The notes beneath the pieces are model-generated. The model saw only the letters and a program-made list of their open reading frames with translations, did not search any database and was not told where the DNA came from. Made by a program: the position numbers and the translations under genes. This document shows, one piece after another, positions 2,413 through 60,549 of a stretch of 64,000 nucleotides of DNA (positions are counted from its first letter, which is position 1; every line of letters starts with the position of its first letter). The DNA is from Octopus vulgaris (Eukaryota), in the NCBI GenBank assembly GCA_951406725.2, contig OX597831.1, forward strand, positions 54,808,001 through 54,872,000, written 5' to 3'.

Positions 2413-2920
2413 AATAACCTTTGCATTTGATTTTTTGATGTCTTTACCCCCAAACTTTCGTGAGTTGAGTTGAGCAAACACTATATGAGAGAGGTTTTCT
2501 TTAAGTATTAGAAATAGTTTTAAAAAAGTTTTTTAGCTGCTATTTCTAATGAGTTCAGTATGCGGCAAAGTAATTTATTTTACTAAGCCCTTTTATATAA
2601 TGTAATAATTTGAATTCGCCTTAAATGGTCCCTTTGCATACTGAACACTTGGTGAAATTGATTAATAATTAATTAATTTTACCCTCAATTATTGAAATTA
2701 TAATTAATCTCCCTCTAATTAATGCTTCGGATTTTACCGAAATAAGCATAGTGTTTGCTGATTTTAACCCACGCTGGTGGAAAGGGGAGAACAGAAATTC
2801 TTCGCTTGCATATTTGAGTTTGTTGGCACTGTTAGTTACGAGCAGATCTTCGAAAGCGATGAGAAGCCGAAAGGGTATGCTCTCACTTTCAGTGTTTTCA
2901 AATCCAAACCAAGGAGTTTC

Positions 2921-2972
2921 TGAGCTGATGATAGAAGTGTCGTGTTGACTAATCTTGAAACGTACGTTCTCA
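2921..2972 (+). ncRNA. Minimal type I hammerhead ribozyme (second tandem copy)
   Basis: Identical to 2361-2412. Confidence 0.8.
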
Positions 2973-3148
2973 AATAACCTTTGCATTTGATTTTTTGATG
3001 TCTTTACCCCCAAACTTTCGTGAGTTGAGCAAACACTATATGAGAGAGGTTTTCTTTAAGTATTAGAAATAGTTTTAAAAAAGTTTTTTAGCTGCTATTT
3101 CTAATGAGTTCAGTATGCGGCAAAGTAATTTATTTTACTAAGCCCTTT

Positions 3149-10626: not shown

Positions 10627-10676
<50 letters not shown>

Positions 10677-10681
10677 GAAGG

Positions 10682-10732
10682 AGCTTCTACAGGACTAGAA
10701 CTGTTTCATTCAGATGAAATCTTCAGGAAGCT
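10682..10732 (-). ncRNA. Type I hammerhead ribozyme
   Basis: agcttc-CTGAAGA-t ttc atct gaa t-GAAA-cag ttctagtc ctg-TA-gaagct. Confidence 0.8.
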
Positions 10733-10794
10733 GGCTGTCAAAACGTCAAAAAACTTAATAAATCTACTTTTTCCGAAGCCCATCCAGTATCCGA

Positions 10795-11251
10795 CAGCAA
10801 CAGCAATTTCAACTGCCCTGATAAGACTACTTGCCCCATCAACAACAACTGCCTACAGAAAGATCTCGTCTACATATGCGATGTACGATCAGGCCCCGAT
10901 GATAAAAGAAAATCGTACATCGGAATGACCTCAAATAGTTTTAAGACTTGCTGGTACACCCACACACATTCGTTCCGGCGACCTGACAAATCTAACCAGA
11001 CTACTCTCGCCGCCCATATCTGGCACCTTAAAAGGAACTCCACCTCCTTCAAGATCAAGTGGAGACTACTCCAGAGACAGCGTTCTTACACGGGAGGCCA
11101 TACTTACTGTGGCCTTTGCATTTCTGAGAGCTTGGAGATCTTATCCGCCAAAGGCCCTCTCCTCAACAAGATCTTGGAACATTCCCCAAACTGTATGCAC
11201 AAAATCTATGCAAACTACAAAAATTACAGACCCACCCGGCCACCCGATTGA
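10795..11251 (+). pseudogene. PLE GIY-YIG endonuclease C-terminal fragment
   Basis: NCPDKTTCPINNNCLQKDLVYICDV..KSYIGMTSNSFK..H.HSF..HIWHLK..IKW..CGLCISE..LLNK..CMH. Confidence 0.8.
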
Positions 11252-11324
11252 CGACACCCCCACAACCCCCCCCCCCACACCACCGTTCCTTCATCACCCC
11301 AAATTACCTTCTCTCCTAACACTA

Positions 11325-12124
11325 TATACATATATATATATATGCATATGTATATATGCACATATATGTATATATGTGCATATATATGTATATGTGCATA
11401 TGTATATGTACATATGTATGTGTATGCATGTATATGTGTGTATGTGTATATATGTGCATATGTATGTATACGCATGTATATGTATATATATATATATATC
11501 TATATATATATATATATATATGCATATGTTTGTATGTGTGTGTGTGTATGTATTTATGTATGCATGTGTGTACATGTGTATATATTTATATGTATGTATA
11601 TGCATATGTATATGTATATATGCATATATGTGTATTTATATGTGTGTACGTATGTATGTATATGTGTATATGTGTATATATGTATGCATGTATGTATTTA
11701 TGTATATATATATGTGCGTGTATGTGTATGTATGTGTATATGCATGTATATATTTATGTATGCGTATGTGTATTTATATATACATGTGTACTTGTATATA
11801 AATGTATGTGTGTATGCGTGTGTATTTATATTTGCATATATGTATTTATATGCGTATATATACTTATATATGCGTATATATATTTATATACACATATGTT
11901 TTTATATGTGCATATGTGTTTATATATGCGTGTATATATTTATGTCTGTGTTTGTGTGTACATATGTTTATTTATGTATGTGTTTATATATGCATAATTA
12001 TGTATATGTTTATATGTACATGGGTATATTTATGTATGTATACTTATGTGTATTTGTATGTGTATATATATATATATGTGCGTGTGTATGTGTATGTAGG
12101 TGTATGTATGTATATGTATGTGTA

Positions 12125-12161
<37 letters not shown>

Positions 12162-12290
12162 GTATGTATATATATATATGTATATATATATATGTGCGTA
12201 TGTGTATGTATGTATATATATGTGCGTATGTATGCATATGTATATTCGCATGTGTATGTATGTGTGTTTGTATGTATATTTATTTTATAT
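11325..12290. repeat. Compound (TA/TG/ATGT) low-complexity tract inside the PLE 3' UTR
   Basis: Read directly. Confidence 0.9.
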
Positions 12291-12667
12291 TTTTTAATGT
12301 TTTTTATGTTTTTTCATGTATATTTATCTATTTATTCCCTCCACTAAACAATAGCAAACTGCCTACCTCTTCTTGACCACCAAAAAGCAATTGTCTTCAA
12401 ATTTACCTAAAATCCCATCCCATATATCTGTTGAAATACTATTCTTGGGGTTTCTATTCATTTATTCTATTTATTCATTTATTTATTTTCTCACTGATTC
12501 TTCTCATTTCAAAAAACACCCTGGCCTTTTGACCACTCCTCTAAGAACAATAGCTTGTGCCCTGTTTATCTCCTAAATACCAACCTACCCCAAAAACGTC
12601 CCCCCTGCCACCACCACTCCATTAAATCTGCCTAAATGCATAAATACCAGAACTTATTTTGACAGCC

Positions 12668-12718
12668 AGCTTCCTGAAGATTTCATCTGAATGAAACAGT
12701 TCTAGTCCTGTAGAAACT
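12668..12718 (+). ncRNA. Type I hammerhead ribozyme in the PLE 3' pLTR
   Basis: Same as 10682-10732 with one stem I mismatch (gaaact). Confidence 0.78.
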
Positions 12719-12800
12719 CCTTCTATAAAATAAATTACTTTACTTTGCTATGTATTGAGTACCTTATTTACTGTGGTTAACCCCGACTCAACCCGGGACC

Positions 12801-12899
<99 letters not shown>

Positions 12900-19655: not shown

Positions 19656-20067
19656 AAAGTTACCAGTATGCCTTTGAATCTCTTTAACAATTCACAATAA
19701 TGACTTTTATTATATAAACAGGATAAAGTATATTACTGATTTCTTTTGTACATTTCGTTCGAAATCGAATTTAACTCAAGCAAATGCAGTAATCTTGATT
19801 ATACTTTGATCGTTTCCCGTGATCGACAAATGTACGGTGGCACTTCATGCATTTTTTATTTTCAGGAAACGATGAGAGCGGTTGAATGCTTCTGGCAAAT
19901 AGTGAACTTGCTACTTGGTTTCGTGTCAGTTGGGACCACTTTACCTCTCCTTTTCCCTGCTTGCATATGTCTGTCTGTCTCTTTCTTTCTCACTCTCTCT
20001 CACATACACACACGAAACCCCTCTTCCTTCATACATACATACATACAAATATATATGTATATATATG

Positions 20068-57995: not shown

Positions 57996-58475
57996 TTATT
58001 TATATTATATAGAGGGCATTATTACACATAAATGCCTCACACTAAGAGGGACATAAGTCATTTCTACCAAAAATTTCACTAATCATACCCAATGCAGTTT
58101 TTCAAAGCAAGACACTTAAAAAATGAATTTAGTCCTATATCACGAAATGCAGTTCGAAAAAGCCCGCCATTTACCGGATATATGATTTATAAACTTCTCC
58201 ATGTGCTTCGTTAGAAAGAGCAGTTGGCTGTTCAACTTCGACAGTGCTGGTAGTTTATTTATGATGTGTTCAGAATCAGTTCTACTGATGAGCATGGACG
58301 CAAATTTTTATGCGGTGAGTGCGAAATCACAGGTGATATAGGACTAAATTCATTTTGTGTCTTGCTTTGAAAAACTGCATTGGGTATGATTAGTGAAATT
58401 TTTGGTAGAAATGACTTATGTCCCTCTTAGTGTGAGGCATTTATGTGTAATAATGCCCTCTATATAATATAAATT
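57996..58475 (+). mobile_element. Fold-back pLTR-like element with a canonical HHR
   Basis: About 57999-58143 is inverted at about 58333-58474. Confidence 0.8.
58278..58345 (+). ncRNA. Canonical type I hammerhead ribozyme
   Basis: agttcta-CTGATGA-gcat..cgca/tgcg..gtgc-GAAA-tcac ag gtga-TA-taggact. Confidence 0.88.
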
Positions 58476-60313: not shown

Positions 60314-60371
<58 letters not shown>

Positions 60372-60375
<4 letters not shown>

Positions 60376-60450
60376 GGTCCCGGTACTCAATACATAGCAG
60401 AGTAAAGTAATTTATTTTATAGAAGGAGCTTCTATAGAAGCTCCTTCTAT

Positions 60451-60456
<6 letters not shown>
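60372..60456 (-). mobile_element. Mini-insertion of the 10672-12803 PLE pLTR 3' end, in (TA)n
   Basis: Matches 12711-12803 with an internal deletion. Perfect 44-bp palindrome at 60413-60456. Confidence 0.85.

Positions 60457-60549
<93 letters not shown>

Follow-up and report, generated by a model that had tools for sequence, protein, structure and literature searches.

The 85-bp insert at positions 60372-60456 (minus strand) of a 64,000-nucleotide stretch of the Octopus vulgaris genome (the window) raises the question of whether the end of a mobile-element copy can record the cleavage of its RNA by the element's own ribozyme. In the literature cited here the role of the hammerhead in Penelope-like elements is left open: its activity in vitro is low, cleavage was dispensable for insertion and RNA-seq showed no cleaved ends. 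In the original prediction the insert was taken to equal the pseudo-LTR of the Penelope-like element at 10672-12803 (10672-12804 in what follows), from a predicted GUA^gaagct cleavage site downstream, and was proposed to be a ribozyme cleavage product that had been reverse transcribed and inserted. Positions relative to the site are numbered here from the G that follows the predicted cut, GUA^G (0; window position 12713), with negative numbers upstream.

The insert and its Penelope-like family

The insert is flanked on both sides by (TA)n runs, at 60322-60371 on the tail side and at 60455-60498 on the side of the inverted arm. Read on the minus strand, it consists of an inverted arm that runs from about +20, the family's second fixed outer end, back to the predicted site (60437-60456, plus strand), a central TATA (60433-60436) and a sense arm that begins with the base following the predicted cut (GAAGCT) and continues to the family's fixed 3′ end, GGGACCTACA (60372-60432, minus strand). 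The two arms form a perfect 44-bp palindrome at 60413-60456, centred on ttcTA|TAgaag as had been described; the fold of the insert has a predicted energy of -32.3 kcal/mol (z -6.9), and the 28-nt core of the palindrome was found at a single locus in the 2.8-Gb genome.

Membership of the insert in the family of the element at 10672-12804 was borne out. The insert is not, however, equal to the pseudo-LTR downstream of the site: when aligned to 12711-12804 its tail lacks 31 bp (window 12762-12792; the gap lies between 60383 and 60384), and the first 20 nt after the predicted site are present twice. The loss of the 31 bp was probably independent of the insertion and took place at an ACC repeat. 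Two readings of the boundary are possible. Either both arms end at 0, as had been claimed, and the TATA is an untemplated or target-derived filler between two cut-site ends; or the arms are joined blunt at -2/-2 and the TATA is made up of two templated TA, since by maximal alignment both arms extend 2 nt (TA) upstream of the predicted site. In its architecture the insert is one fold-back stub; it has neither a ribozyme core nor tandem monomers, and it is a real variant of the known two-armed layout of Penelope-like stubs.

The family is young, high-copy and Penelope-like. A 26-nt tail pattern gave 1,893 exact matches genome-wide and a 32-nt pattern just after the site gave 263. Most copies are stubs of less than 250 bp with a tail of about 70 nt. 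In an unselected sample (99 copies taken from the first 100 tail matches, all of them on contig C1) the sense arms end at +91/+92 in 98 of the 99 copies, and the inverted arm, present in 76, has its outer end at +20 to +27 in 76/76. Such fixed ends agree with two internal starts of reverse transcription, as demonstrated in the anole element (PMC11167929).

The related element at 10672-12804 has its own inverted arm at 10672-10743 (minus strand), which carries an intact copy of the hammerhead. A 5′-truncated reading frame at 10718-11251 (plus strand) contains a YIG motif, a CxxC before the E and a CxH after the N, and likely encodes the C-terminal GIY-YIG endonuclease. Its product gave an Atlas match of 0.95 to a cluster with GIY-YIG on 22% of its members, and searches of Pfam, PDB and longer proteins with this frame, aimed at placing it in a clade, gave no named hit. 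The window copy is truncated and its reverse transcriptase part is absent. Between the endonuclease frame and the TATA-like box described below, a degenerate TA/CA microsatellite of about 950 bp occupies 11320-12280 in the 3′ untranslated part.

Elsewhere in the genome, the locus L303 (1-3028; G000:C8:91476260-91479287) is a tandem array of family monomers of about 270 bp, each with box, hammerhead and tail, and with an inverted arm at its head. The array looks like a non-LTR retrozyme derived from this Penelope-like element; tandem monomers that each carry a ribozyme are present in it and absent from the insert.

The predicted hammerhead and the two classes of arm ends

A hammerhead motif is present in the pseudo-LTR of the family. 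In the related element a type I hammerhead is predicted at 12668-12718 (plus strand) from inspection of the sequence for the core and helices; helix I begins at 12668 and the predicted cut lies between 12712 and 12713. The core (CUGANGA, GAAA and UH in type I order) is present together with helices I and III. The core pattern was matched by 230 arms, in which N7 is A in 123 and T in 105 and loop II is variable. Helices I, II and III are of 6, 3 and 4 bp, respectively, and no compensatory changes were seen among the common variants. Helix II has a U-U at 10.1/11.1 next to the core and lacks a closing pair of the G10.1-C11.1 type. No hammerhead was found among 150 of the 265 Rfam rows listed for the window, nor on L303, and the hammerhead fold is predicted at -6.7 kcal/mol compared with -9.8 kcal/mol for the most stable predicted fold. 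Judged by these sequence features, the predicted hammerhead of the family is an atypical variant and not a canonical one.

A clustering of truncation points at the cleavage site had been anticipated. In the samples and in targeted genome searches the ends are indeed non-uniform and include a minor excess at the site, but the main peak is at -45. In the unselected sample of 175 arms the interval -48 to -43 holds 69 ends, 39 of them from the 99 sense arms and 30 from the 76 inverted arms, compared with three of 175 at -2 to +1 (one sense arm and two inverted arms). Ends at exactly -45 were called for 25 sense and 24 inverted arms, and at 15 loci the arms form a perfect palindrome on the AGCT of that position; a few of the -45 calls are inflated, because the subfamilies diverge upstream of -45 and the references did not cover all of them.

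Position -45 is the first base of hammerhead helix I, and an extra G often stands before it. At AT-rich junctions the preceding base was G in 52, T in 21, C in 17 and A in 8 (n = 98, tallied by eye and including at least one pair from a duplicated locus), and a script found G in 18 of 30 fetched junctions. Where arms run on upstream of -45, G occurs there in 0 of 50. The double-ended filler junctions at -45 end in G in six of six cases, three that run on upstream being left out. At L389 the two-armed layout is seen at -45, its AT filler bounded by C and G, and in both L389 and L390 the extra G is found on both arms. Two other loci, L023 and L024 (G000:C1:208782044 and 208792003), carry an identical stub with identical flanks 10 kb apart and represent a segmental or assembly duplication, not two insertions.

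Upstream of this position is a TATA-like box, which reads CATAAAT in the window (12639-12645, plus strand, starting 29 nt before 12668) and TATAAAT in most variants. A YATAAAT box lies at -29 from the -45 start in 42 of 42 long arms, with a variable spacer sequence; these arms were chosen by homology in the box region, and the count tests the distance of the box, not its presence. Position -45 is very probably a capped transcription start. Because the dominant end looks like a capped start, uncleaved RNA appears to be the usual template. A 3′ splice site at -45 was considered and ruled out, as the ends keep the AG, gain a G and have the box at -29. A marked rise in read-contig depth from 12666-12674 onward, in four runs guessed to be RNA, was set aside, since a start cannot be read from contigs and short copies would produce an identical rise. 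In contig 17 of run X4, which is only guessed to be RNA, many A>G differences were seen across 12541-12708, as A-to-I editing of double-stranded RNA would give.

Ends at the predicted cut site form a minor class. Breaks were searched for with 20-nt anchors and negated upstream bases (three negations; two for -19 to -11), which gave 119 hits at -2 to 0, 71 at -10 to -8, 46 at -5 to -3 and 209 at -19 to -11. In the same order of intervals, 102, 52, 30 and 30 hits were examined and 11, 14, 17 and 5 were dropped as indels, leaving 91, 38, 13 and 25 breaks. When scaled, these amount to about 35 breaks per position at the site compared with 17, 7 and 19, an excess of about twofold, and the arms at risk in the 99 loci were about equal (117, 121, 118 and 123). 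Exact non-indel ends at 0 numbered 25 (102 hits examined), compared with 3 at -8, the matched position, where a G likewise follows TA (52 examined; p = 7 × 10⁻⁵), 2 at -3 (30 of 46 hits examined; p = 5 × 10⁻⁵) and 6 at -1 (p = 4 × 10⁻⁴), while the comparison with -14 was not significant (p = 0.07); all p-values given here take the arms as independent and were computed after the data had been seen.

Microhomology of 2 nt or more is absent from 23 of the 25 exact ends at 0, as scored by script. Site ends in an AT-rich context have a G in one of 61 cases (p = 3 × 10⁻¹³ against -45). Both arms end at the site in at least 19 loci with different flanks, the insert included, and their fillers are 88% A/T; this lower bound comes from the 50 of 81 loci and 100 of 119 hits listed. 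At one locus with both arms at the site, L212 (G000:C8:5403443-5403511), the filler is 29 nt long and is a near-perfect palindrome of unrelated sequence.

Many of the breaks near the site can be placed at more than one base. Sixty of the 91 non-indel breaks align to -2, that of the insert among them; at -2 the TA is shared with the target, and TAGAAG is identical to the reverse complement of +7 to +12. Clean collapses on the TAGAAG/CTTCTA repeat make up at least 12 of the breaks, and many of these were scored as 'filler' by the script. Further upstream, positions -15 and -17 have 16 ends each (first 100 of 209 hits, by eye), about as many as position 0; microhomology explains many of these, and double-ended filler junctions also occur at -19 to -11. 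Overall, a cleavage-derived class of ends probably exists. We infer that a few per cent of arms end at the cut site and that about half of these are an excess derived from RNA without the 45-nt capped leader.

Small deletions after the site were also considered as scars of copying across the cut, and were rejected: AGCT is changed to AACT or ACT at both AGCT words, and the changes cluster near hairpins in L303. No such change was listed at 3% or more in the contigs of the read runs. These changes, and the small deletions near hairpins (L347-L376 and L303), are probably systematic sequencing errors in the assembly. The site had been given as GUA^gaagct; GAAGCT is found in the parent element's inverted arm and in other copies, but the plus-strand pseudo-LTR reads GAAACT at 12713, which may be one such error.

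Two further inverted arms in the window, at 58333 and 19662, had been cited as beginning close to predicted sites. Both belong to families other than that of the insert and neither ends at its site: the 58333 arm ends 6 nt upstream of the cut predicted for it (after 58338), and the match of the 19662 arm starts at 19666, 3-4 nt upstream of the site in a motif with a non-canonical core. A second family is seen at 58276-58345, where helix I of the hammerhead is 7 bp long and its first base, 58278, lies within TCAGTT, which we take to be an initiator-like word; no TATA-like box was seen at -29 of the hammerhead in this family. A fold-back element at 1876-2696 and 2800-3147 has hammerhead-like cores at 2213 (minus), 2359 (plus) and 2919 (plus) without helix III, and its arms end well upstream of the core. 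Among the retrieved family loci there were no other hammerhead families with three or more copies.

Possible origins of the insert

The account that we favour, at slightly better than even confidence and from sequence comparisons, is that the insert is a two-armed stub formed in (TA)n by two reverse-transcription run-offs on hammerhead-cut RNA. Capped transcription would start at -45, with the ribozyme as the first 51 nt of the RNA. The element's endonuclease would open the (TA)n target, and one DNA end would prime cDNA synthesis at +92 and the other at about +20, in the manner of the two internal starts of the anole element in vitro. Most cDNAs would extend along uncut RNA as far as the cap and gain a C, giving the main class of ends, and run-off to the cut RNA end would give the minor class. 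The two cDNA ends, with a few A/T bases added, would then be joined head to head. The broader proposal, that stubs record both RNA 5′ ends, namely a capped one on the first base of helix I and, 45 nt downstream, an uncapped one made by the ribozyme, would have the ribozyme decap a minority of the RNAs and the cut RNA still be inserted; we regard it as evenly balanced.

The match to the site could instead be a hairpin by-product that involves no cleavage. Two longer cDNAs from uncut RNA would have been trimmed and joined at TA or at CTTCTATA/TATAGAAG microhomology, or a longer hairpin copy would later have collapsed between those repeats. This is rather unlikely in our estimation, and several features are consistent with it: the centre of the insert reads CTTCTATA, for which +7 to +14 is a template, and then GAAG; the centroid fold puts a hairpin over the site; at least 12 clean TATAGAAG collapses occur; some fillers contain templated pieces of +7 to +24 (L136, L219, L423 and L464); and other palindromic words, AGCT at +2 and CTAG at -11, gather junctions too. 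It does not, however, explain the 25 exact ends at 0 without TA, or L128 and L463, in which both arms stop at 0 with unrelated filler, and the collapses are lopsided (10 versus 2), which fits a process at insertion better than later slippage. If the reverse transcriptase stalled on entering helix III and the core of a folded ribozyme that had not been cut, and the stalled cDNAs were then joined, ends would also fall near the site: the 3′ strand of helix III ends at -2, and the 58333 arm, from an unrelated family, stops shortly beyond the helix III strand of its own hammerhead. Stalled cDNAs would not be expected to carry a cap G, in keeping with the single G in 61 site ends. A stop before helix III should nevertheless give ends at -1, where the exact ends are 6 against 25 at 0 (p = 4 × 10⁻⁴), and most cDNAs traverse the whole ribozyme to -45; we consider a stall very unlikely.

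The origin of the arms is a separate matter, which is compatible with a cut or an uncut template. A single cDNA may have primed its own copying by folding back at its 3′ end, as has been proposed for such palindromes (PMC3846280, in the part cited here), and it is indeed common for the arms to stop within a few bases of each other, at many points of the element. The fixed outer end of the inverted arm at +20 to +27 is, by contrast, what a second start site would give, and the extra G on both arms at L389 and L390 points to two separate run-offs at the cap; self-copying is improbable. An assembly error in a hairpin between long (TA)n runs could in principle have produced the palindrome or the 31-bp deletion. 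The assembly has many small deletions and many changes of AGCT to AACT/ACT close to hairpins, the exact palindrome centre is unique and the insert is known from this assembly alone. Eighteen other loci with different flanks and fillers have the same layout, though, and the outer ends of the insert are the fixed ends of the family; an error of this kind is most improbable.

Run-off on hammerhead-cut RNA, the favoured account, draws on the minor excess at the predicted site, and to that extent the idea that the insert was copied from cleaved RNA has kept its ground; the dominant end at -45, in turn, points to uncleaved RNA as the usual template. A single insert, proposed as genomic evidence of cleavage in vivo, cannot prove it: its TA matches the target, and TAGAAG-ctc-CTTCTA(TA) gives microhomology at -2. 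If the broader proposal is true, the family would provide genomic evidence for germ-line cleavage by the hammerhead of an animal Penelope-like element. The family supplies two exact coordinates, a likely capped start and a likely cut end, and run-off stubs with or without a cap G offer a way to read RNA 5′ ends from the genome sequence alone. A ribozyme that makes up the first 51 nt of the transcript would probably serve to remove the cap and not to cut tandem units apart. The more secure result is that a capped start likely lies at the ribozyme's front edge; the cleavage-product inference holds for a minority class, with moderate probability.

Comparison with known systems

A search of the literature, based on titles and the beginnings of abstracts and with most subscription papers outside its scope, returned no mapping of the ends of genomic Penelope-like copies to a cap G or a cut site. 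Endonuclease-bearing Penelope-like elements are described, in the cited parts of Craig et al. 2021 (PMC8557442) and Arkhipova et al. 2013 (PMC3846280), as having an inverted 5′-truncated copy, an optional tail and palindromes at junctions. An inverted 5′-truncated copy with a one-sided tail was likewise found in 76 of 99 sampled copies of the octopus family and in the insert, and the junction palindrome, the insertion into (TA)n and the hammerhead near the 3′ end are also shared. The tail in those elements is given as 30-40 nt, compared with about 70 nt, mostly in stubs of less than 250 bp, in the octopus family. The junctions of the octopus family can be tied to two RNA 5′ ends, whereas the sections of the two papers cited here do not map junctions to a cap or cut site. 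With the Hydra clade (PMC8557442, as cited) the octopus element has in common the C-terminal endonuclease with CxxC before the E and CxH after the N, the hammerhead and the (TA)n targets. The first Cys of the clade's CxCX5C linker is a Phe here (FxCX5C), and the reverse transcriptase part, and hence the RWK and DKT motifs, are absent from the window copy. Because of the change in the linker and because the reverse transcriptase motifs are not seen in the truncated copy, placement in the Hydra clade is a lead only.

Metazoan non-LTR retrozymes, as described in the cited parts of PMC7229834 and 10.64898/2026.07.22.740005, share with the octopus family the type I hammerhead and the tandem array of monomers of about 270 bp, as at L303. 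Unlike those retrozymes (PMC7229834), the insert is a fold-back stub without a core and not a tandem unit between two cut sites. In full-length L1 insertions an extra 5′ G derives from the mRNA cap (PMC11702581, cited in part), and the use of an untemplated G at the 5′ junction as the mark of a run-off to a capped RNA end is common to both systems. L1 starts at the 3′ poly(A) and, in the cited account, its twin-primed inversions do not duplicate the same stretch, whereas both arms of the octopus family copy the same 5′ leader. In the Drosophila virilis element transcription starts in the pseudo-LTR, with an intron 46 bp downstream (PMC2377424), and it is the end of the intron that maps to helix I (PMC4209133), both as given in the portions cited. 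As it is the intron end, not the start, that lies at helix I in D. virilis, the start on helix I in the octopus family differs.

The closest comparison for the mechanism is Poseidon of Anolis carolinensis, for which Frangieh et al. 2024 (PMC11167929, in the parts cited) report that cleavage is dispensable for insertion and that no RNA-seq reads begin or end at the hammerhead site. The two internal starts of reverse transcription that define the tail, the cutting and extension of both target strands and uncut RNA as the main template appear to be shared between Poseidon and the octopus family. Unlike Poseidon as described there, the octopus family has a minor genomic class of ends at the predicted cleavage site and a likely capped start at helix I.
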